Origin: Escherichia phage EC100
DNA: 64,000 bases
Strand: one strand, 5' to 3'
Sequence record: NC_105587.1
Position 1 is the stretch's first letter. Every line of letters begins with the position of its first letter. The position numbers were made by a program, and so were the translations under genes. Positions 295 through 62,775 of the stretch are shown here, one piece after another. The notes under the pieces were generated by a model. It was not told the origin of the DNA. It worked only from the letters and a program-made list of their open reading frames with translations, and did not search any database.

Positions 295-323
295 ATTATA
301 CGAGAATTTGAAGCGTTTAGCAA
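295..323 (-). promoter_or_regulatory. sigma70-type promoter, TTGCTA-17-TATAAT
   Basis: -35 TTGCTA (318-323 rc), 17-nt spacer, -10 TATAAT (295-300 rc); member of the repeated cassette. Confidence 0.55.
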
Positions 324-331
324 ATGAATTT

Positions 332-781
332 TTAATTTATTAACTGTAAGCTTCTTTTAATTTCAGACCTTACCTGCATCAAAAGAACTCCCAAAGTATT
401 ATCCCCGATGCCTCGGCAAACACCCCAATATGTATCTCCCCAGGTATTTCCTTCAATCAAAGTTGCATTTTCTGTTGCTAACAGTTTATCTCTCAAATCA
501 GGGAGTGCAAACTTTAACCGTAAAAGCTCTAGCATTACATCATCTTTTACCTTATCCCAGTCAGAGCGTAGAGTTAATTTACGTCCTCTACGTTTAGCAA
601 CTCCTGCATTTAGGGAGCGTAGTACATGAGCTACATCATCTTTTTGGTCGGATTTCATAGCCTGAAAAGCATGTTCTACAGTATCAGCATGCCATATTTC
701 ATTTAGATATTCGAAAGTAATTGGTGATAAATAAAAGTTAGATAAGAAACTATAAGCACCTTTAAATTCAGTAATCTTCAT
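332..781 (-). CDS. NADAR (YbiA-like, DUF1768) domain protein
   Basis: 149 aa; N-terminal SNFY motif and ...HAFQAMK... conserved core typical of NADAR/YbiA. Confidence 0.65.
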   Translation of the reverse strand: MKITEFKGAYSFLSNFYLSPITFEYLNEIWHADTVEHAFQAMKSDQKDDVAHVLRSLNAGVAKRRGRKLTLRSDWDKVKDDVMLELLRLKFALPDLRDKLLATENATLIEGNTWGDTYWGVCRGIGDNTLGVLLMQVRSEIKRSLQLIN

Positions 782-1062
782 TTTTTACGCCCCGCATCTT
801 TGGCCTCTTCGGCTGTATAGATATACTGGTAAGCCCCTTTGGAGTAGGCTGGAGCAGTACACAGTTTCTTACGCTCAATCTCTTCTTGAGCTTTTCTTTC
901 GCGTTCAGCTAATTCTTCATCCAGATAAACTAAACGTTGTTCTGGAGGAGGTGGAAGACGTGTTTCTGGCTCACCAATATTAGCCTTTCTTATTTGACGA
1001 GGTGATTGTGCACGTTTTCTCAATGATTTAAACCCTAGTGAATTTGAGTTATAAATTCGCAT
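778..1062 (-). CDS. hypothetical protein
   Basis: 94-aa ORF overlapping the downstream gene by 4 nt; GAGGAGG SD; cassette promoter upstream. Confidence 0.5.
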   Translation of the reverse strand: MRIYNSNSLGFKSLRKRAQSPRQIRKANIGEPETRLPPPPEQRLVYLDEELAERERKAQEEIERKKLCTAPAYSKGAYQYIYTAEEAKDAGRKK

Positions 1063-1089
1063 AAAGCCCTCCTCACTTTCAATACGAAT

Positions 1090-1118
1090 ATTATACTAAA
1101 TTAGAGAGCTTTAAGCAA
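1090..1118 (-). promoter_or_regulatory. sigma70-type promoter, TTGCTT-17-TATAAT
   Basis: -35 rc of 1113-1118, -10 rc of 1090-1095. Confidence 0.55.
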
Positions 1119-1138
1119 GAAGATTTTTAATTTATTTA

Positions 1139-1815: not shown

Positions 1816-1841
1816 ATGTGTATCTCCAATTTATAAAATAT

Positions 1842-1870
1842 ATTATATTTAAATTTCACTAAATAAGCAA
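1842..1870 (-). promoter_or_regulatory. sigma70-type promoter, TTGCTT-17-TATAAT
   Basis: -35 rc of 1865-1870, -10 rc of 1842-1847. Confidence 0.55.
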
Positions 1871-1879
1871 ATGAAATTT

Positions 1880-1903
1880 AAATATAATAGCCCCGAAGGG
1901 CTA
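1880..1903 (-). terminator. rho-independent terminator after thyA
   Basis: TAGCCC-cgaa-GGGCTA hairpin followed by a T-rich tract on the minus strand. Confidence 0.5.
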
Positions 1904-1909
1904 TTTAAG

Positions 1910-4424: not shown

Positions 4425-4455
4425 TGATTTTCCTCTTTCTCACTATTTCAGGAAT

Positions 4456-4484
4456 ATTATAGCAAATCAGGTAGCGATTAGCAA
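4456..4484 (-). promoter_or_regulatory. sigma70-type promoter, TTGCTA-17-TATAAT, for nrdB-frd-thyA
   Basis: -35 rc of 4479-4484, -10 rc of 4456-4461. Confidence 0.55.
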
Positions 4485-4494
4485 GTAAAATTTC

Positions 4495-4530
4495 AAAGAA
4501 AAAGGAGACCCGAAGATCTCCTTGTTTTTT
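4495..4530 (-). terminator. rho-independent terminator after nrdA
   Basis: 8-bp stem with UUCG tetraloop (AGGAGAUC-uucg-GGUCUCCU) followed by UUUUU. Confidence 0.65.
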
Positions 4531-4531
4531 A

Positions 4532-7967: not shown

Positions 7968-8031
7968 TCCTATAGTGTACTTCGCTAACAGAGGATCAAC
8001 AAAAAGATCTTGTTTATCAACTTACAAATAT

Positions 8032-8060
8032 ATTATACCAGTATATGCAGTAAAAAGCAA
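8032..8060 (-). promoter_or_regulatory. sigma70-type promoter, TTGCTT-17-TATAAT, for phoH
   Basis: -35 rc of 8055-8060, -10 rc of 8032-8037. Confidence 0.55.
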
Positions 8061-8270
8061 CTACAATTTTAAATAAGCCTATGATATTGCATTTAAATAA
8101 AAAATTTGCTTGCTTTTAACGGGAAATGTATGGTATTAGATAATCATTTTATACCGCGTACATAGGTGCGTGATTATACTATTTTAAGTACAAAATAGCA
8201 AATAAATTTTTTAACAATTTGCTAACCTTTTAGCACAGATCAAAATACAATATCTAAGAGAAAAATTATA

Positions 8271-8299
8271 TTGACATTTGCCCTTGAATAAGCTATAAT
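8271..8299 (+). promoter_or_regulatory. consensus sigma70 promoter, TTGACA-17-TATAAT, for nrdD
   Basis: Perfect -35 (8271-8276) and -10 (8294-8299) hexamers with 17-nt spacer, in an AT-rich 360-bp divergent region. Confidence 0.7.
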
Positions 8300-10210: not shown

Positions 10211-10245
10211 AGCCAGGTTGCTAGTCGACCTGGCTTTTATTTTAT
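10211..10245 (+). terminator. rho-independent terminator after nrdD
   Basis: AGCCAGGT / ACCTGGCT 8-bp stem followed by TTTTATTTTATTT. Confidence 0.7.
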
Positions 10246-10274
10246 TTGCTTTCAGCTAAAAATTTATGTATAAT
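10246..10274 (+). promoter_or_regulatory. cassette promoter, TTGCTT-17-TATAAT
   Basis: Followed by the conserved leader ATAGATTTATAAATTTGAGAGGAG and ATG at 10303. Confidence 0.6.
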
Positions 10275-10302
10275 AGATTTATAAATTTGAGAGGAGAAAG
10301 AT

Positions 10303-10515
10303 ATGAGGATTCATAAGGTAGATAAAGATCGTATCTATTTTGTTATGGACTCAGGAGCATATGGTTCCATTCTCTGTGAGGATATAACTAAATTATGTTT
10401 AGTAAATACTTGGATGGACGAAGAGAAGATTGATCCTAGGGCGGGATTGTGCTTATCTGAGCCCGCCCTTTCTATTGCTAATGCAGAAATTGAAATGTTT
10501 GAGGAACAAGAATGA
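10303..10515 (+). CDS. hypothetical protein
   Basis: 70-aa ORF directly behind the cassette promoter and SD. Confidence 0.45.
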   Translation: MRIHKVDKDRIYFVMDSGAYGSILCEDITKLCLVNTWMDEEKIDPRAGLCLSEPALSIANAEIEMFEEQE

Positions 10516-13233: not shown

Positions 13234-13262
13234 ACCGAGTCATTTTGGCTCGGTTTTCTCTA
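13234..13262 (+). terminator. putative rho-independent terminator
   Basis: ACCGAG / CTCGGT stem followed by TTTCTC. Confidence 0.4.
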
Positions 13263-13301
13263 TGCTCAAAGACACTGATAGCACCATCCGGAAAATTTTA
13301 C

Positions 13302-13330
13302 TTGCAGGATGCCCAAAATCTTGATATAAT
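13302..13330 (+). promoter_or_regulatory. extended -10 promoter (TTGCAG-17-TATAAT with TGn) with no ORF behind it
   Basis: TGATATAAT extended -10 at 13322-13330; the next ORF starts about 500 nt downstream. Confidence 0.5.
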
Positions 13331-13827
13331 ATTTATATTGAATTGAGAGACATTAGTAAAAATTGATTTTGCTAATTTTTCTTGTTTACAATCCGCGATA
13401 CGGAACAGTTAGGCTGCCCCATTAAGGGTTGTTTTAACTATTACTAGTGTTTATATTGCATTAGTTAATCTTCAATTAAGTGATCTGTGTACCCTGAATT
13501 CGGAAAGGTAAATCCAAACCGTGCATATTTAGCTCGTTATATAGGCAGAGTTTTATATGGGGGTGCGAACGAAAAGAGCAGCGAATGGCGGCACGTACAG
13601 TAGTCACCTACCAATAGGATAGTGAGGACAAATAGAATCGGCTTAGCGGCCAATGACCTAGGTTCTATTCTGTATATGAGCGAAGAGAGCACAGCACTGA
13701 GATATGATAACTTATTCATATTGTTTGATGATAATTGATGTTTACGTAAATAGTAGTAATAGTTGTTCTATTCTTTCTGAATAGTCCTAAAGAAAAGATT
13801 TCGATTAACCAACACAGGAGTATTGTT

Positions 13828-15666
13828 GTGTTTTCTATCCTTCAAGGTCACGCCGGATTTTCTCGTGATTTAGCAACAGGTATTTGGCGAGAAATCAAAG
13901 CGGAAGATTATACCTTTGCCAAGCGATTCTCGAAAGAGCATCCAGAAGGTAAACCAGCTTCTATGCCCTTCAAATTTGATGTAATAGAAGAGCACGACCC
14001 ACAAAGCCTTGCCGAAATGTTACCCCTTATGAGACGTTTAACGTCTGACCCTCATATCGTTGCGGTACGAGGTCGATGTCTTGCACCTAAAAATAATGTG
14101 CGACGTAAGAAAGGTAACTTTAATGTATCTAATCCTAGTAATATTATTGCTATGGACGTGGATGGTATCCTAGATACCGGTGGGTACGACAAATTTAATC
14201 TTGTTGGTATGGCCCGCCACATTATTAAGATGTTGAATAGTATTAGTGAGGATATGTTTCCTCTTGATGCAGGCTTTATAGCTCATGCATCATCTTCGGC
14301 TGGGCTAAAACCAGGTATCCGAATGCACTTAATGCTAGAATCTAACGTCAAGGTAACTCAGGGTCAGCTAAAGTTCTTATTTACATCTATCAACGATAGT
14401 AGTAAGCAAAAATTTGGTTTTGATATTGCCGACCTAGCTTATTATTCATCTGTCCAGCTCCACTATTTTGCCGACCCCTTATTTAGCGATGGTATTGTTG
14501 ATCCGTTTAAAGCGGAGAGTAAGCCACGTCTGGTGTATGTTAAAGGTTCGAAAGTAAATTTGCCCAATAATCTAGTTGACTATGAAACAACTAGAGGGGA
14601 GTTTAAGGAAGAGTTTTATTCTTTACTTGATCAAATTAAAGGCAAAAAGATTGCTTCTGATAAAGTAGAAGAAACCATCAGCGAGTTAGAAGAGGCTGAT
14701 GATGGAGTGTATTTGCGTATTATCCCCAAACTATACCATAGAGCATTAGAGGATGGTGTTGATTTTGCATGGCTAGAACGTGAGATTAAACCAGCTTTAT
14801 CTGAATATATTGCAACTAAAGATAACAGTCGTAATATTCAAGATTACTTTAATAACGGTCGTAAGCAGGCTCTCAAAGCGTTTGTTAATAATTCTAAACG
14901 TGAGATTCCATTAAATCTGAAAGGTGTTCCACTTAAGAAATTAGAAGTGGATTCTCCACCAGAAGTTCCATACCTGAAGATTAATATTGTGCCCCCAAAA
15001 GGCCATATAACATTTGTTAAGGCAAGTCTTGGTACGGGTAAAACTACGGCAGTAACTAAATGGCTGGACGCAGGTGTTCTTCCGGGCAACTTTTTAGCAG
15101 TTACAAATACTAGAGCACTGGTATCTTCAAATGCCAAGAAATTTAGTGCAGGACAATACGATAAGTCTGTAGATATGCTCAACTTTAAGCGTGGAGCTAT
15201 TGATCGTATGTCCACAACTATTCACTCTTTGCATAAGTTCAAAAGTTTTATTGGGCAAATAGACACCATTTTTATTGATGAATGTGACGCTGTAATGAAT
15301 GACCTATTATTCGCCCCTGTTGTTAAACAACGTCGTGAGTGTATTCAAGTTCTACGTGACATCCTCATGACAGCTAAGACTGTAATCTTATCCGATGGTG
15401 ATATTAGTGCTGAGACGATTGAAGCATATGGTTCTCTAATTGATTTTGATAAACCGGTTGCATTTTATAATCATCACCGTAAAATGCTGTCAAAAGCTCA
15501 TGCTTATGAGTTCCCTGATGAGTCCAGTATTTGGGTTGCACTTCAGACTTCTCTAGAGATGGGTGAGAAATCTATTCTAGTATCTGATTGTGGCCCGGAT
15601 GAGCTAAATGAGAAAGGTATGGCACTGCGTCGTAATACGGGTGCGTTAGTTAAGGAAATCCATTGA
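13828..15666 (+). CDS. helicase-like protein, N-terminal portion, ends at in-frame TGA
   Basis: 612 aa, GTG start with AGGAG SD; Walker A GTGKTT and Walker B IFIDECD. Confidence 0.6.
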   Translation: MFSILQGHAGFSRDLATGIWREIKAEDYTFAKRFSKEHPEGKPASMPFKFDVIEEHDPQSLAEMLPLMRRLTSDPHIVAVRGRCLAPKNNVRRKKGNFNVSNPSNIIAMDVDGILDTGGYDKFNLVGMARHIIKMLNSISEDMFPLDAGFIAHASSSAGLKPGIRMHLMLESNVKVTQGQLKFLFTSINDSSKQKFGFDIADLAYYSSVQLHYFADPLFSDGIVDPFKAESKPRLVYVKGSKVNLPNNLVDYETTRGEFKEEFYSLLDQIKGKKIASDKVEETISELEEADDGVYLRIIPKLYHRALEDGVDFAWLEREIKPALSEYIATKDNSRNIQDYFNNGRKQALKAFVNNSKREIPLNLKGVPLKKLEVDSPPEVPYLKINIVPPKGHITFVKASLGTGKTTAVTKWLDAGVLPGNFLAVTNTRALVSSNAKKFSAGQYDKSVDMLNFKRGAIDRMSTTIHSLHKFKSFIGQIDTIFIDECDAVMNDLLFAPVVKQRRECIQVLRDILMTAKTVILSDGDISAETIEAYGSLIDFDKPVAFYNHHRKMLSKAHAYEFPDESSIWVALQTSLEMGEKSILVSDCGPDELNEKGMALRRNTGALVKEIH

Positions 15667-15681
15667 AACTCTACCTCAGAT

Positions 15682-16617: not shown

Positions 16618-16834
16618 AAAATGGGAAACAAGGAAGTTTCCAGTAAAAGAACGTAAAGTTCCTGTTTATGATACTTCGGAAAAGCTATGTAGGGTGGTAC
16701 CACATAGATTAGCTGGTATCCCTAACATATCCGAGTGGTTACTTAAACAACGGAGGACTAACGTATCTCTTCGCATAGGGTTTGAGTTAGATAAAGTATA
16801 TGCTGAACTTTCTTCTTTGCTCAAGGAATCGTAA
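16592..16834 (+). CDS. hypothetical protein
   Basis: 80-aa ORF overlapping the helicase 3' end. Confidence 0.3.
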   Translation: MLEMTVKNKKWETRKFPVKERKVPVYDTSEKLCRVVPHRLAGIPNISEWLLKQRRTNVSLRIGFELDKVYAELSSLLKES

Positions 16835-16842
16835 AAATTTAT

Positions 16843-16871
16843 TTGCTTTCAGGAAAATTTTTCTGTATAAT
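16843..16871 (+). promoter_or_regulatory. cassette promoter, TTGCTT-17-TATAAT
   Basis: Near-identical to the 10241-10302 cassette, including the leader ATAGATTCATAAATTTGAGAGAGGAG. Confidence 0.6.
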
Positions 16872-16902
16872 AGATTCATAAATTTGAGAGAGGAGTTTAA
16901 AT

Positions 16903-19071: not shown

Positions 19072-19088
19072 TTCTTGGCTTTTTCTTT
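19057..19088 (+). terminator. rho-independent terminator
   Basis: GCCAAGAA / TTCTTGGC 8-bp stem followed by TTTTTCTTT; the stop codon lies in the loop. Confidence 0.65.
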
Positions 19089-19098
19089 ATAAATGTAT

Positions 19099-19127
19099 TT
19101 GCTTTCAACTCAGTTTTGATATATAAT
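19099..19127 (+). promoter_or_regulatory. cassette promoter, TTGCTT-17-TATAAT, for ligase subunit A
   Basis: -35 19099-19104, -10 19122-19127. Confidence 0.6.
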
Positions 19128-19158
19128 ATTTATATAAATTAATGAGAGATATAAATAA

Positions 19159-20130: not shown

Positions 20131-20180
20131 TACATAACCCTTTGCTACCCATCTACCATATCGGAATTATAAAGTGGTTA

Positions 20181-20209
20181 TTGACATTTTCGCCGCTTAG
20201 GTATATACT
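20181..20209 (+). promoter_or_regulatory. sigma70 promoter, TTGACA-17-TATACT, inside the ligase spacer
   Basis: Consensus -35 with near-consensus -10. Confidence 0.5.
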
Positions 20210-20274
20210 ATTATCATTCAGTTGAGGGATAGAAAGTTATGGCGAGGGTAAGCAAAGTTAGTTAAAATTGTAGT

Positions 20275-20302
20275 TGCTAAATGCTTAAATACTTGCTATA
20301 AT
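20275..20302 (+). promoter_or_regulatory. cassette promoter, TTGCTA-17-TATAAT, for ligase subunit B
   Basis: -35 20275-20280, -10 20297-20302. Confidence 0.55.
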
Positions 20303-20332
20303 ATTTATATAAATTGATAAGGAAGAAATTTG

Positions 20333-23427: not shown

Positions 23428-24314
23428 GTAGAATAACAGAACTACTTGATCTGAAAGGCATTGAATATAAAGACACAGGTGGGGACATCCTCATCTGTTG
23501 TCTCAATCCAGATCATGACGATAAACACCCAAGTTTGCGTATTGATCCTGAAACAGGTATTATGCACTGCTTGAGTTGTGGCTTCGGTAAAGGTATACCG
23601 AGCATTTACCATTATTTTAATGAGACTCAGTACCGACAGTCTCCAAGACTATCACAGGTACGTAAAAAGATTTCAGAGATTAGGAATGGATCTACGAATC
23701 TTGCAATTCCTGAATCTGCTTACCTTTTCGAAGGTGATTTCCGAGGTATAAGTTCTAAGACCTTGAAGAAATATTTTGCTTTCCAACACCAAGCAGACTG
23801 GGAAGGCAGAATTGTATTCCCAATCACAGATGCTGTTGGACGCAATATCCTATTTTTGGGTCGTTCTATAAACAGTTCTGCCCCTCCTAAATACTTAGTA
23901 AAACCAAAACAAGTTTCACCACCAATTTTTCCTGTACGATATAATACTCCAGTTCTTATTCTAGTTGAAGGTATCTTTGATCTGCTAAATCTAGAGGATA
24001 ATGGTATAGACTATGCTTCTTGTTGCTTTGGTACACATCAGTTTACTTCAGACAACATTGCGGATAAGTTTAGTCCTTATATTATTGCTGGTGTAAAAGT
24101 TGTTGTTATCTTACTAGATAATGATGCTTCGGGTAATAAAGCTGCACAAGCACTGGCCAAGCTAATTCGTACAAAAACGCGTTTAACACCTGTAGTTGCT
24201 AACTTTCTTCTACCTGAAGGTAAAGACCCAGGTGACCTAAATAAAGAAGAAATTGATATGTTAGCAAAACGTATTGAAATTTTAGTTGCTGAATCGCTTA
24301 AAGATTTGGTATAA
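23424..24314 (+). CDS. DNA primase (zinc-binding plus TOPRIM)
   Basis: 296 aa; CHC2-type zinc motif CCLNPDHDDKHPS...HCLSCG and TOPRIM motifs LVEG, DNDASG. Confidence 0.8.
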   Translation: MSRITELLDLKGIEYKDTGGDILICCLNPDHDDKHPSLRIDPETGIMHCLSCGFGKGIPSIYHYFNETQYRQSPRLSQVRKKISEIRNGSTNLAIPESAYLFEGDFRGISSKTLKKYFAFQHQADWEGRIVFPITDAVGRNILFLGRSINSSAPPKYLVKPKQVSPPIFPVRYNTPVLILVEGIFDLLNLEDNGIDYASCCFGTHQFTSDNIADKFSPYIIAGVKVVVILLDNDASGNKAAQALAKLIRTKTRLTPVVANFLLPEGKDPGDLNKEEIDMLAKRIEILVAESLKDLV

Positions 24315-24376
24315 TATATTGGTAAGTTAGAGAAGAAACACTGAAGTTATACTTACTTACCAAGAGGAGATTAAAT

Positions 24377-27434: not shown

Positions 27435-28783
27435 AGGTTGTTATATCTAATAAAGCCTATTTCAAGCCCGATGATGAACTTTGGGATTATTGTAGTAAGC
27501 AAACCACTTATCACATTGAGACAATGACTAGTAAATACCCTATTATGTATAAGAATAGTGGTGTTGTTGCTAAAGAGATTAAGTGGATTCCTATCACGCG
27601 TCTAGATTTACTAGATGCTAAAGGAGTAAAATACGAATTAGTCGATAAACGCACATTAGCCCCAGTAGATATACCAAAACCTAAGTTTAAGCTGCGTGAA
27701 GAAGACCAGCTCCCAATATATGAAGAGTGCGATGATACCTGTATTATTAATGGTAAGCCTGGATTTGGCAAAACTATCCTAGCCCTGGCACTTGCGTATA
27801 AATTTGGCCAGAAAACTTTGGTAATTTGTACCAACACATCTATTCGTGAAATGTGGGCGGCAGAAGTTCGTAAATGGTTTGGGTTCGAACCGGGCATTAT
27901 AGGTTCTGGGAAATACAATATTGATCCACCAATTGTAGTCAGTAATATTCAAACAGTAAATAAACATGCGAATAATCTTTCTAAAGTATTCGGTACTGTT
28001 ATAGTTGACGAAGTTCACCATTGTGTGGCTACAACTTTCACTAACTTCCTAGAAATATCATGTGCTCGCTATAAGATTGGACTATCTGGAACATTAAAAC
28101 GTAAAGATGGTCTACAAGTTATGTTCAAAGACTTCTTTGGATATAAGATCTTCAGCCCGCCTGTTAATAATACTGTTGCACCTACAATCCATAGGTACTC
28201 TGTACCTGTTGAGTTATCAGGAAATCAGAATGTGCCATGGGCATTACGTGCTAATGATGTGTACAACCATCCTGAATATCGAGAGACTATTATAAACTTA
28301 GCACACTTATACGTGAATATGGGGCATAAAGTACTCATTGTAAGTGACAGAACAGAGTTAATCCAAACAGTACTAGAAGCTCTCGCACAGCGTGGTGTTA
28401 CAACATATGAAATTATAGGGGCAACTCACTTAGATGACCGATTAAAAATTCAGGAAGATATAGCAAAAGGTGGACCTTGTGTACTTGCAGCAGCTCAAAG
28501 TATCTTCTCTGAAGGTATTTCCCTTAATGAGTTGTCTTGTTTAATAATGGGAAGTCTCATTAATAATGAATCTCTCATCGAACAGCTTGCAGGACGTGTT
28601 CAACGTATTGTCGATGGTAAACTAGACCCTATTGTTGTAGATCTAATTATGAAAGGTGGCACTGGACTAAGACAGGCTTCTGGACGTATGGCAGTATATC
28701 GTAACAACGGGTGGAAAACTATTACCATGACCCCTGAGAAAGCAGTTCAATTAGCTAAAATTGCATTTGGCAACAGCTCATAA
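27431..28783 (+). CDS. SF2 DEAH-box helicase (T5 D10-like)
   Basis: 450 aa; Walker A GKPGFGKT, motif II DEVHH, C-terminal helicase motifs. Confidence 0.8.
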   Translation: MKVVISNKAYFKPDDELWDYCSKQTTYHIETMTSKYPIMYKNSGVVAKEIKWIPITRLDLLDAKGVKYELVDKRTLAPVDIPKPKFKLREEDQLPIYEECDDTCIINGKPGFGKTILALALAYKFGQKTLVICTNTSIREMWAAEVRKWFGFEPGIIGSGKYNIDPPIVVSNIQTVNKHANNLSKVFGTVIVDEVHHCVATTFTNFLEISCARYKIGLSGTLKRKDGLQVMFKDFFGYKIFSPPVNNTVAPTIHRYSVPVELSGNQNVPWALRANDVYNHPEYRETIINLAHLYVNMGHKVLIVSDRTELIQTVLEALAQRGVTTYEIIGATHLDDRLKIQEDIAKGGPCVLAAAQSIFSEGISLNELSCLIMGSLINNESLIEQLAGRVQRIVDGKLDPIVVDLIMKGGTGLRQASGRMAVYRNNGWKTITMTPEKAVQLAKIAFGNSS

Positions 28784-28795
28784 ATGATGTATAAT
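28767..28795 (+). promoter_or_regulatory. sigma70-type promoter, TTGGCA-17-TATAAT, first of a tandem pair
   Basis: Followed by the conserved leader ATAAATTTGAGAGAG but no ORF. Confidence 0.45.
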
Positions 28796-28866
28796 ATATA
28801 CATAAATTTGAGAGAGAAAGTTTCGGATTGATAAGAAAGTCCGAAGCAGAAAAATAAAAATTTTAG

Positions 28867-28896
28867 TTGCTAAATTCTCTCGAAATCTAGTATAAT
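28867..28896 (+). promoter_or_regulatory. cassette promoter, TTGCTA-18-TATAAT
   Basis: Followed by leader ATAAATTCGAGGAG. Confidence 0.5.
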
Positions 28897-29003
28897 ATAT
28901 ACATAAATTCGAGGAGAAAATAAAAATTAAATTCTTCGATTATGAAAAGCTATACTTACTAGCTAGAGGAAATTCCGACCTAATTATTAAGCTATTCAAA
29001 AGA

Positions 29004-29288
29004 ATGCTTACAGAGCCTGATGCTCACCAATTATTGGTCGGTCCCTCATTCATTTTGAATGAATCAACTATTGTTGATAATCCAAATAAATTGTCTAATA
29101 GACAACTGGCAGAATATCTAGGAATTTTAAGTCTACGAAATTATGCCGAATACAAGTTTACAAACGATCCTAGTTTGGACATACAATATGTTCCAGTATG
29201 GATACCACGTTTAGTAATCGACACTAACCCACTAATCGCAATTAACAAATCGAAATTAATCTTTAAAGAGGAAATAAAATATGGCTAA
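29004..29288 (+). CDS. hypothetical protein
   Basis: 94-aa ORF with weak SD overlapping the next gene start. Confidence 0.3.
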   Translation: MLTEPDAHQLLVGPSFILNESTIVDNPNKLSNRQLAEYLGILSLRNYAEYKFTNDPSLDIQYVPVWIPRLVIDTNPLIAINKSKLIFKEEIKYG

Positions 29289-45123: not shown

Positions 45124-45194
45124 AGTTAATTTCTCCTCTTTAATAACAATATTATAATAGTATTAGAAAATTTTATCAAGAAATTTTTATTTTT

Positions 45195-45232: not shown

Positions 45233-48200
45233 TTAAGAATTTCCTAATGTTTTCAGACTAGCACCGTTCTCATTCAGAGCTAATTCTACTGCGTCTCTTA
45301 GAGCACTACTATTACTAGAAGCAAACTCTCTAAAACTTGCAGCATCCATAGCACTAATATTCAAGATGATAGGTCTTCCTGAAGTTGAGTTAGATGAGGT
45401 TTTTAACTCATCATTAGGTGTAGCTTTCATAGGAACCATAGGGGTAACTACTTCTGTACCATGCTCACCCATTTGATAGCTAACCCCAGGGTACATATTA
45501 CCACCCTCAGCACGAGGAACGAAAGAGTTAGCACCGCCTATGCCTTTATCGCCACGAATATAAGATAATTCACCAGCATTAGCAGACATGGACACATCTA
45601 TATTCTTCTGACGTTCTCCTAAGGTTAAATAACTAGTTGTATCCGCCCCAGAATCTGCAATAGAAGACATGCCAGATGCAGAAGATGCTTGTGCTAACGC
45701 CAATGCACCCGCTAAACCTGCCGCAACCATTAAAGGAATAGAGAACGGGTATGGTACAGCTGTTGCCGCTTGCATTACAGCTACTGCAGTTTGGATGATA
45801 ATCTGCTTCTTAGCTGCGTCTTGTTGAATCTTCAGCTTTTCAGCTTCCAACTTCTTCAACTTAGCTTTAGATGCTTCTGATTTACCATCACGTTTCTGTT
45901 CTGCTGCAATAGCCTGATCAATTGCACTAACTTGTTGGCTAGTACTATATTGAATCATCGAGGCTACAGTCTGCATACCAGAAGCAATCATAGACGTAGT
46001 ATCTAGGGATCCCTGGGAGAACTGAATCATAGAGTTAGTTAAATTACCCATGCTTTGAGCTACAGCAGTTGCTTCGGAATTTAACTCAGATAGTTTAGAA
46101 ATTGCTTGGTCATACGAAGACATCCTATTCTGCATATCAGCAAAATCTTTATCTGCTCCAGATAGGCCAGTTGTAGGAGTATAAGTAGCTCCAACAGAAG
46201 AACCTACCTGTTGCTGCATCTGAGCATTACGTTGTGCTGTTAAAGCTGACATCTGAGCCCTTGTCTTAGCTATTTCAGCATTCCAACGCATTTGCTCATT
46301 AGCGTTACCTTTGGTAAGTTCTTTCATCTGAGTATAAAAATCTAACTGCATTTCCATTTTTTGCATTTCCCCTGCCAGAGGGAACATGGAAGTTAGAGTA
46401 TTTTCAAAGGCTTCTTGCCTTTTACTGGTCATTTCAGCTTGCTGGTTCTGACGGAATTTCCATATTTCACGTTCAATTTGGGCTTGAGAACGTCTAGACT
46501 GTTCAGCCTCTTTCTGTTTGTCCGCTTGTTTTGTATACCATTCGTACTTCTCTTTTTCAATGGTCAATTCAAGATTTAACTGTGCTAGACGATACTGAGT
46601 ATCTGTCATAGTACGGTTATTTAAGAGAGCTATCTCACGATCTACACCAAGAATTTTATCTGTGTAATCCTTGACCTTCTTCTGAGCTTCCATACCCTGA
46701 TTGGTAAGTTTAAGTTTCTCCAGCTGAATTTTTTCAATTTCTTTCTCAACAGCTTTATTTCCCTGGTTTGTTTGAAGAACACGGCGTAAAGCAGCTTCTT
46801 GCTCTTCTAACTGTTGGAGTTCTAAACGCCTACCGGCTTCCTGTGCTTTTTCTTTATCCTTAGTTTGGTTATATACATCAGCTATCTTCTGTTGAACTGC
46901 TAACTGATTTTTAGTTTCATTACCGGTTAGTTTAACATACTCAGATAAGGCCTGAGACGCAGTTTTCATTTCAGACAGAGTGTTATAGCCTAGGTTAAGA
47001 TTTTTAACGTACTCATCTGCACTTTTACCAGTACCTAGAGATAGAGATTCTATATTTTTTATAGCATCTGCTAAAGTAGCACTAGTTTTAGCAGCAGTAT
47101 CTGTATTCTGAGCAACGTTCTGTATGTCATTAGCTAAGTCACTAGCCGTTTTCTTAGTCTGATTGTACGCTTTCTGCTGCTCAGTTAGTCCTTTTAATAC
47201 AGTAGAGTTAAAATCGTATACAGCATCAGGATCAGTAGTATCTCTCTGTAGATTAATCTGTTTCTGAAACTCTGGATTAGCTTTTGCAGCAGCAGCACCC
47301 GCAGCTTGATAGGCTGACTTCCAAGCATTAAGGTTTTCAGTAGAATCTTCTACTTCCTTACCTAGTCTGGTTACTTGTAGACCCATAGCCGCAGTTTCTT
47401 CTACGAACTTTTTATTAGCTTCGGAAGCACCAGCAGCAGCAAGACCAACAGGAATACCTTCACCAACTTGACGTATGGCTAGTTTTGTATAGAAATCTGC
47501 TTGTTCCATTCGTTTGTCGAACTCAGATTTTAGCTTATTACGCTTATCAAGAGATTCCTTATACATATCTAGAGCTTTATTATAGCCTTCTTCAGAAGCA
47601 GCCAAACTTAAAGCAACAGCACCAACGTTGGTAGGATCTATCTGTCTATTAGTTTTTTCTTGCGCTCTAGCTGCCTCAGCAGATATCGAAGCCTGAGAAG
47701 TGTAGAATACAGTATTGATAGCATCAATTACTGGCCCTAAATACTTAGCAGCAGCCTGCTGAATCTTTCTCAGGGCGGCATCTGCATTAGCAGCAAATTG
47801 CTCCCATGGAGTTGCACGTAGTACTTCATCTAGGTAGCCAAACCTCTTAGTAGATTCAGCAATTACCGCGTTAGCGTATGCTTGTTGTTTCTGGAAAGTG
47901 GTAAGACTATTAACATTATATGTTATACCTGTGTTTGCAGCATTTAACTGTTTAACATAATCGGCGTATGCGTCATTAAGACGGATGGTGACACCAAGTT
48001 CATCCAGAAGTTCGATTTCTTGTTTAGATACGCCCTTAATTACACGGTTAAGTGCATCAGTCATATCAACACCAAGAACAGCAGCAGCACGACGAGCTAC
48101 TAAACCAAATTTATTAAGTTGTTCGGCATCAAATCCATAAGCAGATGCTGAAGATGCCTGTCTCATTGCTTCCTCAAAAGAAATAGCATATCCAGCAGCT

Positions 48201-49848: not shown

Positions 49849-50728
49849 AGAAATCTATTCTCACTGGGTCTGAAGAAGCAGTAGGTATAATATCCCACTC
49901 AACTTTATACACATCTGAGAAATCTAGGCGTTTTGTAATACGTGCTAAAGGAAAATCTATAGAAATACTATTATTTCTTATATTTAAAGGTACATCGGTC
50001 TCTGGTTCGATATTGTAAACCATATCTCCAGCAAAACGTTTTAAGTAATATAGAGAAATGGTTGCCGAAGCATTCATTTCATTTACATAGGCTCTTTTAT
50101 TATTATAGATTTTATTTATATCAAAAACACTCTTATCTTCTCTCCAAGAGCATTGCTGTTGAAAAGATAAAGAGGCGGAAATAAGGCCAGGTAAGATGCT
50201 ACCGTTAGTAGAAACTATTACCGGGCTATAAGACATTGCTTCACCCTGTATAATAGAAGCTGCTTCTCTATATGTAGATACTTCGGAGAATTTCCCTGAC
50301 TCAATACCAACGTTAAGAATTGGTATATTCTTATCTAAAGAAAAATCTACTGTAGATACATAACAGTTTTCAAAATATACACAGTTGTTATCTTTATTTA
50401 CTATATAGATATTAAACATAATAGGTTCAATATTGTTACTATATAGTGGTAGTAAGAAAGTATTACCTTTTCTGTCAAAACCTAGCCATTCAAAAAAGTT
50501 AGCTTCAGTAAGTGTATTACTAAAATTTATTGCTAGAGAGATAGAAGAAGGAGTTTGAGCATTTATAATAGAGTCTGCATAGTTAGTTCTACGATGAATA
50601 GTCCTACGAAGGGTCTTAAATTCTTCGTAGGATGTTTGTACATCATAGTTTGATAGGGCATCAAAATGAAATGCCCTACCATCATACTCAACTATAACTT
50701 TTGACTCTCGCATTAGAGAGTAGTACAT
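49826..50728 (-). CDS. tail structural protein (T5 p140-like)
   Basis: 300 aa between tube and chaperone genes; assignment by size and position. Confidence 0.4.
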   Translation of the reverse strand: MYYSLMRESKVIVEYDGRAFHFDALSNYDVQTSYEEFKTLRRTIHRRTNYADSIINAQTPSSISLAINFSNTLTEANFFEWLGFDRKGNTFLLPLYSNNIEPIMFNIYIVNKDNNCVYFENCYVSTVDFSLDKNIPILNVGIESGKFSEVSTYREAASIIQGEAMSYSPVIVSTNGSILPGLISASLSFQQQCSWREDKSVFDINKIYNNKRAYVNEMNASATISLYYLKRFAGDMVYNIEPETDVPLNIRNNSISIDFPLARITKRLDFSDVYKVEWDIIPTASSDPVRIDFFGEIKND

Positions 50729-52165: not shown

Positions 52166-52651
52166 TTATCTGCGAAGTGACCTACGTGGAGGCTGATACC
52201 TCACTGTTACATTTATTTCTGCTAAACCATATGGGGCCAGTAGACCCTCATCTGTACTAACTGATGTAATGCTCATATCAGTCGCCTCACATGGGAAGGT
52301 CGATCCATTAGGTTTACTAACAGTATATTCTAAATTTCCACCTGTGTCAATAACGGTTTTTATATCCGCTACGAGTTTTTCAAGTTGCTCTTGAATGTCT
52401 GTTTTCTCTTTATCATACACCAGGATAGGAAGTTCTAAAAACATCCACTGTTGACCTGAGGGAAGATACTGCCCAGTTTCAGTTCCGATATGAACTGCAA
52501 CATAAGGAAACTCTCTTATCTCCTCAAACTTATAAGTTTGACGTGAGACGTTTCCATACAAGTTATTAAAATATTCATCTGGTTGGGAGCCATCCATTTG
52601 TTTGGCTATTCGATCAACCAGAGCTTGTGCTATACTTGTTCTGTGATCCAT
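52166..52651 (-). CDS. putative tail terminator / head-tail joining protein
   Basis: 161 aa directly upstream of the tube gene. Confidence 0.4.
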   Translation of the reverse strand: MDHRTSIAQALVDRIAKQMDGSQPDEYFNNLYGNVSRQTYKFEEIREFPYVAVHIGTETGQYLPSGQQWMFLELPILVYDKEKTDIQEQLEKLVADIKTVIDTGGNLEYTVSKPNGSTFPCEATDMSITSVSTDEGLLAPYGLAEINVTVRYQPPRRSLRR

Positions 52652-53422: not shown

Positions 53423-53934
53423 TATACTCTCCTATATACTTCAATAATAGTACGAATATGCTCTGGGATACCAGACTTAGTGCTATTGAAGGTTACTGTT
53501 TCACCACCAATTGTTTTAGCTTGGCGATAATCTTGTTTATGCCAATGATCTACTAGCATACACGCTGCAAGTTTGAGATCTTCAGGCACTGGGTTAAATC
53601 CACCTTGTGTATATGCTACATCCATATAACCTTCTGGAGGATTAAATTTGAGAAGGATAATACCGTCAGAGTATAGCTTATACTGCTCTGGGTCAATCTC
53701 ATTATCGTTAATCGTCACTTTAGTTACGGAGGTAGCAGATGGTGAACTCAGAAAATATTTCCTACGTGTAGGTTTTGTATTGATTAACTGGTCTACCGCA
53801 TCAGCATCATCCATGCCTAGAAGGCTCGTAATCAGCGCATTGGCAGCAGTAATCATCATTTCTACACCAGATTCTAATTCAGGTCGTTTTAAGCTACCAT
53901 ATAATCTATAATCTTCGGCTGTGATGATTTGCAT
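53422..53934 (-). CDS. putative head-tail adaptor / head completion protein
   Basis: 170 aa; N-terminal MQIITAEDY...L pattern typical of head-tail connector proteins; first gene after the capsid terminator. Confidence 0.45.
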   Translation of the reverse strand: MQIITAEDYRLYGSLKRPELESGVEMMITAANALITSLLGMDDADAVDQLINTKPTRRKYFLSSPSATSVTKVTINDNEIDPEQYKLYSDGIILLKFNPPEGYMDVAYTQGGFNPVPEDLKLAACMLVDHWHKQDYRQAKTIGGETVTFNSTKSGIPEHIRTIIEVYRRV

Positions 53935-55387: not shown

Positions 55388-56020
55388 TTATTCTTTAACG
55401 TAGCCTAAAGCTATCGCAAGTTTTTCTAGTTCAGAAAGATTACGTTCTTGAGCTGGGACAGCTTTAGAACTTATTGCAGTAAAAGATTTACGCCATTCAG
55501 TATAATCATGACCATTCATGCTCTTAGCGAGATTGAACGTTGAGTCCTGATTACAAGGTACAGAAACTACCGAAACTTCGTATAGTTCTAAATCTTTAAT
55601 AATAAATATATCAGTAGCTTCATCCCACTCTGCATCTAGGCAGCGGAATCCGATACTAAAAGTTTTCAGTACACCGTTTTTAATTAGTGAAAAGATAGCC
55701 GGATCAGAACTTTCATAGATCTCGCATTCTATTTCGAGACCCATTTCAGTAGGATTAAGATCAATACACTTGCCGATTGGACGACGATGGTCGTGTCCGA
55801 AAAGAATAATCGGGTTTTTCATGTAGTTAGCAAGTGCATTAGATGTTTTCCATGCCGAGGCAGGAATTACATCACCAGCGCGATCTTTACTAATTGTATT
55901 AGCGAATCCACGGATTTTTACAACACCTTCTTTGGATTCGCTATCAATAGATTTAATATAAGCATCTAAATGAACCGGTGCTGATTTTAACTTGTTATAG
56001 TCAATAGCAGCTTGTGTCAT
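55388..56020 (-). CDS. prohead protease (HK97 S78-like)
   Basis: 210 aa, directly upstream of the capsid gene; prohead-protease-like composition with conserved His and Ser. Confidence 0.7.
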   Translation of the reverse strand: MTQAAIDYNKLKSAPVHLDAYIKSIDSESKEGVVKIRGFANTISKDRAGDVIPASAWKTSNALANYMKNPIILFGHDHRRPIGKCIDLNPTEMGLEIECEIYESSDPAIFSLIKNGVLKTFSIGFRCLDAEWDEATDIFIIKDLELYEVSVVSVPCNQDSTFNLAKSMNGHDYTEWRKSFTAISSKAVPAQERNLSELEKLAIALGYVKE

Positions 56021-58954: not shown

Positions 58955-58985
58955 GAATGGGATACCAACTGAGTAGTATCCCATC
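58955..58985 (-). terminator. putative terminator after the terminase large subunit
   Basis: ATGGGATAC / GTATCCCAT stem followed by a T-rich tract on the minus strand. Confidence 0.4.
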
Positions 58986-58995
58986 CTATATTTAT

Positions 58996-60312
58996 TTATT
59001 TACCACGGGAAATAGAGTAAATTCCATAGCGCAGCGCATCACAGAGGTGAGAGTTAGCATCATGACGTGGTTTTTCACGTGATAATTTTTCTTCACCTTC
59101 TTGGAAGTCCCATTTATAGTTCTGCAACGCATGGATTAATGAGGAACATGAAGCATCTACAATAATCTTGCCCTGCTGGAATAGCGCTTGCAAGCATGCT
59201 AGACCGTCTAGGACAGATTTTTTAGCTGGAGCTGATGCAATTTCATGTTCATAAGCTAAGTCCTGACGGAACTGAGCTGCGGCAGAGTCAACAAAAATAC
59301 GATCAACTTTATAACGATCTATACAGTGCTGAATATAAGCAGCATGCTGAGCTGTGGTCTTCTCCGCCTGCTGGTACTCTTCTAATACATAGTAAGTATC
59401 CGTATCGTAATGATACTTGATAGTAAGAACTGCTGTAGGATCACGATAACCAACGTCAATGCCAAGCAATGTTTCGAATGCTTCATCATCTTTAAAGAAG
59501 TGACGCATACCTTTGAGATCTTTAACATGGTCGATGGCATTAAAGGTATCGAAGATCTGACCTTCGAATACAGAGAAGTCAGCCTCGTATTCTTGTCGGA
59601 AGTAGTTTTTACTAACAGTACGACGTGCTTCTTCGATGTCATTAAGGTCAGCACGTGGGTTATCACGATATGTACCATGAATAGATACCCAGTTAGGTAA
59701 TGTATCATCAAATCCATAGGCGTAAAACTCTTTAAACCAGTTACCCCCACGAGGAGTAGAGATAAATAGAGCCTTAGAATTAGGCTTATCTAGAGTAGGA
59801 CGCAACTGAACTCTAAAGGCATCACCACCCACATCAGAAATTGCCGCCTCATCGAAGATGATAAAATCATATGAACGTCCAACTGCGGAGTCAGCCTGAG
59901 CGGCAGAAGCTAGTTTAAATAGAGAACCATTAGCTAACTCAATCTCTTTATCTTTAGCGTTCTCACGTTCGGTCTGTAGGCCATACTTCTTAATAAGACC
60001 ACGAATCTGAGACCATCCGATGTTGGCCAGTGAGTAGTTAGGAGCAACTACTAACACTTTCACATTAGGTTCCAACAATTTTAGGAATCCAAGTGTATAT
60101 GCTATAAAGGATTTGCCTACACGGCGTGACACACACGCCGTTACAAAACGATGTCTAGGGTCCTCTAAAGCATTAATGATTGCTATTTGAGGACCATTAG
60201 GTGTAATACCTTCTTGTGCTAGTATTCCTGAAACAGGTAAACGAAAGAAACGTTTATCTATCCCGAAATCAATAACATCTACTGTGTTAACGTAGGGTCT
60301 TGATACTTCCAT
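58996..60312 (-). CDS. terminase large subunit
   Basis: 438 aa; Walker A-like RRVGKS, Walker B-like DFIIFDEAA, C-terminal nuclease domain acidic residues. Confidence 0.85.
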   Translation of the reverse strand: MEVSRPYVNTVDVIDFGIDKRFFRLPVSGILAQEGITPNGPQIAIINALEDPRHRFVTACVSRRVGKSFIAYTLGFLKLLEPNVKVLVVAPNYSLANIGWSQIRGLIKKYGLQTERENAKDKEIELANGSLFKLASAAQADSAVGRSYDFIIFDEAAISDVGGDAFRVQLRPTLDKPNSKALFISTPRGGNWFKEFYAYGFDDTLPNWVSIHGTYRDNPRADLNDIEEARRTVSKNYFRQEYEADFSVFEGQIFDTFNAIDHVKDLKGMRHFFKDDEAFETLLGIDVGYRDPTAVLTIKYHYDTDTYYVLEEYQQAEKTTAQHAAYIQHCIDRYKVDRIFVDSAAAQFRQDLAYEHEIASAPAKKSVLDGLACLQALFQQGKIIVDASCSSLIHALQNYKWDFQEGEEKLSREKPRHDANSHLCDALRYGIYSISRGK

Positions 60313-60794
60313 TACTTCTTACCTCCAGTAGCTAGGGAAGTAATTAGGTCCATGTAGTTTTGATCCCCAGCTCCAGCAATAATATTATTCTGGATATTGG
60401 TCTGGTTAGCTGGAGTACGGGCTGCTGCCTTCACTTTCTCCAATTCTACCATCATTTTCATTTCTTCCATCTTCATCTTGTGTGCCTTCCAGAGAATGTC
60501 CATAATATCCTGGTCAGAACCCATGCCAGTTTCTTCTAGCTCTTCTAGCTTACGCTTAATAACTTCATCTAGAACACCAAATAAACGATCTCTATTACGG
60601 AATCCACTCTCCATAAAAATATCATTTAAGTAGTTTTTAACTTCGCTACGATTCATAATATCTCGGAAAGCAATTTCAGACATTCCAAGACTACGTGCGG
60701 CAGAAGGCACATCACTCCCGCACTGTAAATAAGCTTCAATTACATCCATCCCTTCAGGGGACATAAGATCTGGTACTAATACATCATTTGCCAT
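60312..60794 (-). CDS. putative terminase small subunit
   Basis: 160 aa, immediately upstream and overlapping the large subunit; HTH-like [12 protein letters not shown]. Confidence 0.5.
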
Positions 60795-60804
60795 ATTTCC
60801 TCCT

Positions 60805-62727
60805 TTAGGTAAGGCGTTGAATTATAAGTTTAATATTTGGTAAGCATGCTTTCATGCCAATTATATTGCTCATAGAGGATTCTAACCAAATAGAGATATT
60901 ATTATTTCCATCATTTCTCATATAGTATGTTAGAGTATAGTAACCCGTTTGACCTACGGATCCTGGCAACCCAGATACCCAGTACGGAGTTGGAGTATAC
61001 CCAGCAGCCTGTAATTTACAAGCATTTACTACAGTACCTTTAATAGTAAAAAATGGTACATATTCTCCTGCAGGTAGGGACAATATTTGGTGAAGTTTTT
61101 TATCGATAGTATTGCCACCCATTCTAAACCTACTATCGCCATATTCAGCGCCTTTAGATAGCATTTCCGTAGGATTAAAGCAGCCAATACCTCCTGCAGA
61201 CAACCATGTGTCATCCAGGAACTCCATAGTACATACAATTGCGCCATTTCTACTACTATTAAGATCTAGTCCCACGGTGCCAACATGCACGGAACCATTA
61301 CCCTGAAATACTATGTTACCAGATAGTACAGTACTTCCGCTACCACCTAGAAGTCTTAAAGGTAAAAGATTCTCACTCCAAACATCTCCATAATTGCTGC
61401 CTATTTTTGGAGGATTACTAGAAACATACCAAGATGCTGAAGGTAAAAAGTTATAAATACTAACTACATTAGTATTTAAACCACCAACGTTACCGCCTTT
61501 AATACTTGGTGCGTTATTGCTTTCCGTAGTGGGCAGCCCAAATGTTGCTATGCCAGAGATCCCAGTAGAGGGGGCACCCATACTCAAGTTACACCCAACA
61601 TCACGAAAATCAGCCCTGTTACCGACATTGAAGTTTTTCTCTATAAAGTTGATAAACTTCCAAGATGTATTATTAACGTTAATCCCTTTAATAATAAATT
61701 CAGTGGGGCTTAATTTTATATCATTACCTGTGAATAATCCAGCATCAATACTATAACCTGAACCATTATACACTAAGTTAGTAACATACCAGGTAATTTT
61801 AGATGGATAAATACCGAGGTGCTCACTATATATACCTATGGGCCCATTAGCAGCATCATTCGGATCACCCATACTTTCCCAATACGCATAGTTAGTGGGA
61901 TCAGCACGTGCGAAACCTACAGAGTACTTAGGGGCCGAGGGATTGCTAGGATTAGACATAAAGTTAAGAGCCCCAGAACTAGAAGCACCGTGCACGGCTC
62001 CAGCAGTAGTATAGTTAGGCCCCTCCATACCGTAAAGAACTCTATTACAAGACCTTCCACGAACATATATGGCATTAAATCCAAAGTTTCTAGCTCCGGG
62101 ATGCCTAACGTAGTCGCTAGGGATAGTTAGAGTTCCTGAATCCGGCACTACATATCCTGAACCATCCCAGGCAGACTTATAAAGAGCGGCACCCCCTAAG
62201 TACATTGCACTAGATGCAAACCCTCTACGTCCACTAAAGGCTCCAAATATATGCTGACATCCAGTACCATCTCTTAACTTTTGTGGTATAGTGCCACTAG
62301 TACCTGTATTAAAATAGCCTACATCAAGTGAAAGATCGGCACTAGCTGTTATTTGTGTTTTTAACCCACCCTGAGACATAACCTGAGGATTTATAATACC
62401 ATAGGCTTTTGCACCTACCCCCATAGACATGCCAGATAACATATGTCTAGAGCCATCAGAAAACTCAATTTCTGTTAATACAACCCTATTAGGGTCATTA
62501 TTATGTAGCTGTGTAATTCTACTAGGCATTTCAGACCAGTAATAGTCACCAGCGCCCTGATCCAATCTTAATCCAGTAGAATGAGTTTCCGTTATAATTA
62601 CGTGCGGCATATCTGAATGAAAGATGGTTTGGGAATCAGGGTTGATATGTTGGTTAGTATCTCCACCACTACCCCTTCGCAGTGAGAGTATAGATTTGTT
62701 ATTTAGCTTACCAGCGAAAAAACTCAT
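60805..62727 (-). CDS. oad: receptor-binding tail protein (T5 pb5/oad-like)
   Basis: 640 aa; Gly/Ser/Asn-rich beta-type composition; divergent from an Llp-like lipoprotein gene. Confidence 0.6.
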
Positions 62728-62746
62728 AAGTTCTCCAAAAATTTAG

Positions 62747-62775
62747 TTGCTTATACTGCCATAATTCTGTATAAT
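62747..62775 (+). promoter_or_regulatory. cassette promoter, TTGCTT-17-TATAAT, for llp
   Basis: -35 62747-62752, -10 62770-62775, GAGGAG SD before ATG 62807. Confidence 0.6.

Follow-up and report, generated by a model that had tools for sequence, protein, structure and literature searches.

T5-type early promoters repeated through the early region of Escherichia phage EC100, and a candidate structured leader RNA behind one of them

Introduction

The genome of Escherichia phage EC100 (sequence record NC_105587.1) raises the question of why one short sequence should recur again and again, on both strands, in front of so many of its genes. The stretch analysed here, which we refer to as the window, is 64,000 nucleotides (nt) long. 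An initial annotation of it had described about fifteen copies of a cassette, TTGCT(T/A)-17 nt-TATAAT followed by a conserved leader, which was taken to drive the early genes. We conclude that, with a probability of roughly 95%, these repeats are early-class promoters of a T5-like phage which are read by the host sigma-70 RNA polymerase. One copy, at position 13302, lies before an origin-binding helicase gene and heads a structured leader which appears to be undescribed and is a candidate new phage RNA.

The repeated element and its sixteen copies

The element is as stereotyped as had been claimed. The exact core TTGCTW-N17-TATAAT (W being A or T) was found 12 times on the two strands against 0.08 occurrences expected, and none of 100 dinucleotide-preserving shuffles reached 12. 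A position weight matrix (PWM) built from these 12 exact copies, and scanned with spacers of 16-18 nt, returned 16 copies with scores of 26-55 bits, whereas the top scores of five Markov shuffles were 2-12 bits. The four copies beyond the exact set have either an altered -35 hexamer (TTGCAG at 13302 and TTGGCA at 28767) or an 18-nt spacer (copy 28867, with TTGCTA, and copy 24286-24315, with TTGCTG). Two copies had been missed (8173-8201 on the minus strand and 24286-24315 on the plus strand). Every site that had been listed is real, with 20275 corrected to 20274, and 13302, 28767 and 28867 are genuine copies of variant sequence.

Genes of nucleotide metabolism and replication occupy the minus strand from 1 to 8 kb and the plus strand from 8 to 34.7 kb, and the virion protein genes form a minus-strand block of about 28 kb from 34.7 to 62.7 kb (the late block). 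All 16 copies have the orientation of their downstream genes and the late block holds none of them; the chance of 16 randomly placed sites all avoiding this block is about 1e-4 (0.5625^16). The copies are listed below with their match to the exact motif, where there is one, their PWM score where noted, and the T5 promoter feature to which each corresponds, fractions giving the positions matching over 75 nt.

269..337, minus strand: P-H207 orthologue, -35 TTGCTA at 318-323, -10 TATAAT at 295-300, inferred transcription start at about 288; exact motif, 49.3 bits, 67/75 to T5 P-H207 (45985-46059).
1064..1132, minus strand: cassette before a 94-amino-acid open reading frame (ORF) at 778-1062; exact motif, 42.0 bits, 73/75 to T5 promoter 46337-46411.
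1816..1884, minus strand: cassette before a 66-amino-acid ORF and the RNase H gene; exact motif, 44.8 bits, T5 promoter 46937-47011.
4430..4498, minus strand: cassette before nrdB-frd-thy; exact motif, 46.6 bits, T5 promoter 50061-50135.
8006..8074, minus strand: cassette before phoH, downstream member of a tandem; exact motif, 50.2 bits, 71/75 to T5 promoter 53638-53712.
8147..8215, minus strand: core promoter (UP-like tract and TTGCTA-17-TATAAT), upstream member of the tandem; exact motif, PWM 23.1 bits in its upstream half and 2.9 bits in its downstream half, T5 promoter 53776-53850.
10232..10300, plus strand: cassette before a 70-amino-acid ORF at 10303-10515; exact motif, 48.8 bits, T5 promoter 55708-55782.
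13288..13356, plus strand: cassette with -35 TTGCAG, at the head of the helicase-gene leader; 35.1 bits, 75/75 to T5 promoter 58999-59073, its homologue being labelled "putative early promoter T5P32" in a second T5 record (AY587007).
16829..16897, plus strand: P-N25 orthologue, TTGCTT-17-TATAAT AGATTC ATAAATTTGAGAGAGGAG, -10 from 16866; exact motif, 54.9 bits (the best copy), within T5 feature "promoter P-N 25" (63043-63117), its core fitting N25 as given in PMC12464699.
17870..17938, plus strand: P-N26 orthologue before D3, -10 from 17907; exact motif, 48.5 bits, T5 P-N 26 (64068-64142).
19085..19153, plus strand: cassette before ligA; exact motif, 49.6 bits, 73/75 to T5 promoter 65284-65358.
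20260..20328, plus strand: P-K28a orthologue before ligB-D5-D6, -10 from 20297; exact motif, 51.8 bits, 75/75 to P-K 28a.
24272..24341, plus strand: Ppol equivalent before the DNA polymerase gene, TTGCTG with an 18-nt spacer, -10 from 24310; 40.8 bits, 75/75 to T5 promoter 70987-71061.
28753..28821, plus strand: P31A orthologue, -35 TTGGCA, -10 from 28790; 38.3 bits, 75/75 to P31A.
28853..28922, plus strand: P31B orthologue with an 18-nt spacer, about 100 nt before an ORF at 29004-29288, -10 from 28891; 44.0 bits, 73/75 to P31B.
62733..62801, plus strand: cassette before the llp/cor lipoprotein gene, the sole copy past the late block; exact motif, 50.5 bits, 73/75 to T5 promoter 110349-110423.

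Alignment of the copies showed that conservation extends well beyond the two hexamers. Directly 5' of the -35 an A/T tract with the consensus AAAAATTT / TAAAAATTT is present in all 16 copies, with more than 1 bit of information at several of the positions lying 2-9 nt immediately upstream of the hexamer, and an A after the -10 is conserved as well, together with a downstream block. The 6-nt discriminator is A/T-rich in 15 copies (e.g., ATATTT, ATTTAT, AGATTC), the exception being CACGCA at 8178. The combination TATAAT-N6/7-ATAAATT was found nine times against 0.04 expected; ATAAATT stands at the inferred +1 in nine of the 16 copies, six carry related purine-rich variants and one has neither. 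In most copies the start codon follows at about +20 to +33, and in a few as far away as about +68. The cassette is thus composed of an A/T-rich UP-like tract, the core, the discriminator, an initial transcribed sequence resembling ATAAATTTGAGAG, and a Shine-Dalgarno sequence. The downstream motif which had been described as a conserved leader is therefore not random, but its first 6 nt would belong to the untranscribed discriminator, A[TG]ATT[CT], the remainder being initial transcribed sequence and Shine-Dalgarno; homology with P-N25 would place the start of transcription at the A of ATAAATT. The two copies at 10241-10302 and 16839-16902, which had been called nearly identical, agree in 86% of the aligned core columns (49 of 57), which makes the description slightly generous.

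Identity with the early promoters of T5

By nucleotide identity the window is assigned to a T5-like coliphage of the genus Tequintavirus close to Escherichia phage EC122. One 6-kb piece is 100% identical to EC122, many other T5-like phages showing about 96% there, and in the first 35 kb only three bases differ from EC122 (positions 62, 15665 and 25912). Phage T5 itself is 88-98% identical in blocks of the early region and 76-91% in the late block. When the copies were placed on the T5 reference genome all 16 mapped inside features of 75 nt annotated as promoters, with 41-75 of the 75 positions matching; the classical names which some of these promoters bear come from the Bujard and Ksenzenko laboratories (T5 reference annotation, Wang et al. 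2005). Conversely, the PWM derived from the window detected 32 copies in T5, located between 16.2 and 75.6 kb apart from one at 110.4 kb before llp, and no copy was found in the pre-early terminal repeats or in the late genes of that genome. This restriction to the early region and llp indicates that the motif is specific to the early class, and the proposal that a promoter-leader cassette drives the early genes is upheld. The P-N25 cassette was also detected by blastn in Klebsiella phages at about 80% identity, where the promoter-leader part matches and the upstream 52 nt of the query do not.

Published work on T5 suggests how such cassettes would act. N25 combines TTGctt/17 bp/TATAAT, a UP element and a discriminator of 6 bp (Hsu & Han, PMC12464699); its open complex is extremely stable, with a half-life of 180 min, the rate-limiting step is promoter escape, and no initial transcribed sequence is known which serves escape more efficiently than its own (PMC12464699). 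As reported there from Kammerer et al. (1986), replacement of positions +3 to +20 of N25 lowered the yield of full-length RNA about 10-fold. It is mainly the discriminator which sets early T5 promoters apart from late ones, ATATT being common to all early ones (Klimuk et al. 2020, PMC7472727). In the window, core and UP tract would accordingly be expected to give very fast and very stable polymerase binding, escape would be the limiting step, and the conserved initial transcribed sequence would let polymerase escape efficiently, a role which was shown for P-N25 (PMC12464699) and which homology extends, as a prediction, to the other copies. The discriminator would separate the early from the late promoters. 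Distributed in this way the cassettes would punctuate the early region, so that each operon of nucleotide metabolism or replication is driven or re-driven by a strong promoter, some of them in tandem pairs and one at the head of the long structured leader of the origin-binding helicase gene.

In T5, Ppol was found to be early in vivo by primer extension (PMC7472727), and promoters of this set are described as active in vitro by Gentz and Bujard (1985) in the account given in PMC7472727. Several points weigh on the other side: primer-extension products were obtained in vivo for 11 of the 19 T5 promoters tried by Klimuk et al. (PMC7472727); start sites in EC100 rest on the homology with P-N25; in four copies the -35 hexamer departs from the canonical one or the spacer is 18 nt long; and the copy at 8173-8201 has neither the conserved discriminator nor the conserved initial transcribed sequence. 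As a consequence of these four cores and of the truncated conservation at 8173-8201, promoter strengths probably differ across the set.

A structured leader before the helicase gene

As had been noted, the copies at 13302 and 28767 are not directly followed by an ORF, and a test of both for small-RNA products had been suggested. Both are explained differently here: 28767 belongs to a tandem pair, which is treated below, and 13302 stands at the start of a long structured leader which belongs to the helicase gene. A terminator at 13234-13254 closes the upstream operon just 5' of the 13302 promoter, and the gene which begins with the GTG at 13828 encodes an origin-binding helicase of the Herpes_ori_bp family. 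Two independent T5 reference annotations leave a blank gap of about 470 nt between the early promoter and this gene. The features of the interval are as follows.

13337..13827, plus strand: structured leader RNA free of ORFs, about 490 nt, up to the GTG at 13828.
13341-13358/13370-13387, plus strand: 5' hairpin of the consensus fold.
13402-13408/13763-13769, 13438-13444/13756-13762, 13458-13466/13733-13741 and 13480-13490/13689-13697, plus strand: long-range helices.
13632-13643/13648-13668, plus strand: hairpin with the invariant GCUUAGCGGC.

Conservation of the stretch extends over more than 500 phage records, and it always lies directly before the Herpes_ori_bp-family helicase gene. In 25 of 29 distinct versions its length is 484-497 nt, the other four having an insertion of about 98 nt. 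Variation is almost absent from the first ~115 nt and the last ~80 nt, and the middle occurs as several very different sequence types which keep the islands GAUCUG, GAGAAGUG, GCUUAGCGGC and GUUGCCACCCC; these types track the types of the helicase protein. No ORF is conserved across the leader types, and small conserved ORFs in 13337-13827 were rejected, positions and sequences of ORFs differing between lineages. Among enterobacterial T5-like phages the leader was found in Tequintavirus, Epseptimavirus, Klebsiella and Pectobacterium phages, and marginally in Providencia.

The fold was predicted with RNAalifold from a plain MAFFT alignment of 28 leader versions which had not been fitted to any structure. 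The consensus has 72 pairs, 32 of which show double-sided compensatory changes; 96.7% of the alignment cells are paired, compared with 38-52% when the partners are slid, and the covariation score is 0.321 compared with at most 0.073. None of 500 shuffles reached the observed value on any of five measures, two of them robust to phylogeny, the sample representing some six or seven independent lineages and the structure having been derived from the same alignment. The fold is also strand-specific because of 450 G·U cells, pairing being 96.7% on the plus strand, which the promoter transcribes, and 74.8% on the opposite one. The long-range helices close a core of about 370 nt (13402-13769), whose central 200 nt cannot be aligned across types, although folding gives similar sub-hairpins. 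Searches with Rfam 15 gave no match in the window at the gathering score and none at E <= 5 in 13250-13900; for the leaders of seven other lineages there was none at E <= 1, two sub-threshold matches both lying upstream of promoters. A resemblance of the leader words ACAGAAC and GGCUUA to RNase P was set aside for want of a matching Rfam model, and no published description of the leader RNA was found in a literature search.

Further afield a covariance model of 13622-13730 (R1) gave one match in the window, one in all T5 and a marginal one in a Providencia phage, and no match in the Vibrio or Aeromonas relatives within the Demerecviridae, in which the same helicase gene is preceded by 600-900 nt of DNA that is noncoding or of doubtful coding capacity. 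In six Vibrio Demerecviridae (L044 and L201-L205) a TTGACA-17-TATAAA promoter is followed by about 650-690 nt of leader before the helicase gene obp, and the first bases transcribed from this promoter, ATTGATTCGAAAGAG, resemble the T5 initial transcribed sequence. Alignment of these six sequences predicts a long-range closing helix with four compensatory pairs, from few lineages and with a positive (penalising) covariation term. An extension of the RNA to the Vibrio and Aeromonas phages was therefore rejected, since R1 is silent there and the Vibrio alignment has too few lineages. A scan of metagenomes with an 18-nt leader motif gave 120 loci, one of them a real homologue and the rest chance matches.

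Two variants of the leader itself were observed. The ~98-nt insertion (AGTGAAGCTGACAAGGGATTTACGGCGAGAGG...) lies inside the 5' hairpin at about window position 13376 and is flanked by duplicated TTTTTCTT; a multi-copy mobile element was considered and discarded, the insertion occurring at the leader site only, in three IMG/VR phages.

L022:613-1203, L027:611-1203 and L041:610-1203, together with Gostya9 (L006) and EH1 (L010): carriers of the ~98-nt insertion.

The leader of another IMG/VR phage (L025) combines a type-A core with a type-B 3' tail (AAAACTTATTTCATTTCC) and is an apparent recombinant within the leader. In the window, the helicase ORF (13828-16617, plus strand) contains an in-frame TGA at 15664-15666 where EC122 and T5 have TCA (serine); it is created by the G at 15665, one of the three differences from EC122. 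The gene is presumably essential. The TGA may reflect natural nonsense variation, a sequencing error or an edit.

We would give somewhat less than an even chance to the proposition that the 13302 copy transcribes a large undescribed structured RNA which could represent a new phage regulatory RNA class or a replication-initiation RNA of T5. The role that we prefer, with the same reserve, is that of a cis-acting structured 5' leader controlling translation or stability of the helicase mRNA, possibly as autoregulation by the helicase. The covariation-supported fold on the transcribed strand, the constant length in 25 of 29 versions and the invariable position before a helicase gene whose protein types the leader types track all point in this direction; there is, moreover, no terminator inside the leader, so that transcription would continue into the gene. 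What tells against this candidate role is that the leader is very large for a translational operator and that some 60 nt separate the end of its structured core from the start codon.

Alternatively the transcript may be a primer or R-loop RNA which marks an origin of DNA replication, or may be processed to a free non-coding RNA, which we regard as possible though unlikely. Analogues are ColE1 RNA II and the transcription-dependent origins of T4 and T7, and the phage DNA polymerase is presumably of the Pol I type. The leader adjoins the gene of an origin-binding protein, its promoter is strong and early, and its fold is a large closed domain of several helices in which single-stranded motifs are conserved; the phage itself codes for RNase H and, by the T5 annotation, a flap endonuclease, and the origins of T5 are undefined, being described as "multiple internal origins" (PMC3632103). 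Against this stand the absence of iterons or obvious origin features at the DNA level in the leader, the lack of evidence for 3' processing, and an argument drawn entirely from position and analogy. An iteron-type origin in 13337-13827 was rejected, the repeats there being weak two-copy ones and the long inverted repeats being the RNA helices.

Cassettes as possible recombination substrates

It had also been suggested that the repeats serve as substrates for homologous recombination, which would make them mobile regulatory cassettes shuffling gene modules among T5-like phages. We consider this improbable as an additional function. Homology between the window and T5 does break at cassette edges (333; 1834, near the transcription start of the cassette at 1816..1884; 4451; 10291-10297; and 17858), the break at 10297 was repeated in 17 comparisons, and pairs of copies are up to 86% identical over 57 nt. 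When the window was compared with T5 and about 30 partial T5-like genomes, giving 61 breakpoint clusters in the first 24 kb, 13 of the 61 fell in cassettes, against 5.8% for positions drawn at random (p = 4e-5). One breakpoint in two, however, lies between genes, and cassettes make up 42.6% of the intergenic DNA; measured against that expectation, the 13 of 31 intergenic breakpoints which lie in cassettes show no excess (p = 0.6). The suggestion thus finds no specific support, and promoters do not stand out as preferred recombination sites: the pattern indicates mosaicism at gene boundaries with no special role for the promoters, which simply fill much of the intergenic space. Furthermore, neither a hybrid promoter junction nor a deletion from one promoter to another came to light in the compared genomes, and three of the clearest differences from T5 are whole HNH-endonuclease genes, which implies a different mechanism. 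The T5 homing-endonuclease genes hegH, hegI and hegJ (~500 nt each) are cleanly missing from the window, at 4449/4454, 16597-16604 and 23424-23427, and account for three of the larger homology breaks.

Tandem promoters

The promoter at 28767 is P31A, and P31B begins 101 nt after it; as no terminator-like site was found in 28700-29050, including the interval between 28767 and 28896, the two form a tandem pair. The same arrangement is seen for the copies at 8178 and 8037, with no terminator between the 8173 copy and the next promoter (8006..8074), and for P-K28b and P-K28a. A short independent RNA which is made from 28767 and ends before the next promoter could be argued from the missing ORF and from a hairpin of 6 bp (TTCGGA...TCCGAA) some 20 nt further downstream. 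Such an RNA is very unlikely: the loop of the hairpin is 12 nt long and a U-tract is lacking, the interval up to 28896 is free of terminator-like sites, and the site is T5's own named P31A in a layout which recurs elsewhere. Terminator-bounded small RNAs after 28767 or 8173 were accordingly rejected, no terminators having been found, as were tRNA or known RNA genes after the 13302 and 28767 copies, for which searches including Rfam found none.

Finally, the idea that the repeats arose by chance in A/T-rich intergenic DNA, which a genome of 39% G+C and A/T-rich intergenic sequence might invite, or are remnants of transposable elements, can be dismissed, since chance or low-complexity origin is ruled out by the shuffles and by 12 copies where 0.08 are expected, position, orientation and orthology with tested T5 promoters argue for function, and the copies have no terminal inverted repeats or target duplications.

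Other promoter classes in the window

A perfect sigma-70 consensus, TTGACA-17-TATAAT (12/12), is located at 8271-8299 on the plus strand before nrdD, and opposes two minus-strand early promoters over a divergent region of 130 nt which is also the minimum of the cumulative GC skew. Two further sites, P-K28b (20161-20235, plus strand), 5' of the P-K28a cassette, and the late P-J5 (52296-52370, minus strand), inside a tail gene, match T5 at 75/75 and share the design TTATTGACA ... TATACT (TTGACA/TATACT). An orthologue of the late promoter P-G25 was found at about 45121-45193 on the minus strand, with the leader ATTAAAGAGGAGAAATTAACTATG. We take the P-G25 leader ATTAAAGAGGAGAAATTAACTATG to be identical to the synthetic "RBSII" of pQE-type vectors.

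Significance

Recognition of these promoters helps annotation, since in the EC122 record all of the sites are unlabelled and most genes are "hypothetical". T5 is a classical model phage, and what deserves to be pursued is the structured leader after the 13302 copy. Its fold is absent from Rfam; should the leader regulate the helicase or have a part in the initiation of replication, it would bear on where and how T5 replication starts.

Comparison with known systems

ColE1 RNA II is a primer precursor of about 550 nt, and GOLLD and ROOL are large non-coding RNAs. The leader shares with them a size of several hundred nt, a closed multi-helix architecture with long-range pairings and a phage context, and with ColE1 RNA II in particular a position next to replication functions; it differs in that no Rfam model matches it even at E <= 5, in that it is continuous with an mRNA, and in that its function is a predicted one.

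The promoter-early stem-loop (PeSL) cassettes of T4-type phages, reportedly proposed by Arbiol and colleagues in 2010 to mediate modular gene shuffling, offer a second parallel, as in EC100 too repeated early promoters flank small variable genes and several breakpoints lie at cassette edges. Unlike PeSL, the EC100 cassettes have no associated stem-loop that we could find, their breakpoints are not enriched relative to intergenic DNA, and recombinant junctions were not seen.

Among strong sigma-70 promoters of E. coli with a UP element (rrnB P1, lambda PR) recognition by the host sigma-70 holoenzyme, the -35/-10 spacing of 17 bp and the A/T-rich upstream element are the same, and N25 has been compared directly with lambda PR in PMC12464699. 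The T5 class is set apart from typical sigma-70 promoters by its -35, TTGCTW and not TTGACA, and by its conserved initial transcribed sequence.

The closest relatives are the T5 early promoters P-N25, P-N26, P-K28a, P-H207, P31A/B and Ppol. P-N25 is the source of the commercial and laboratory "T5 promoter", a widely used expression system. The host phage differs (76-98% identity in aligned blocks), as does the first gene after some of the promoters, but the sites, the architecture (UP-like tract, TTGCTW, 17 bp, TATAAT, A/T discriminator, ATAAATT...GAGAG) and the downstream genes are the same. The EC100 cassettes are therefore an ordinary rediscovery, nothing new in kind, of a promoter family which has been known since the 1980s.

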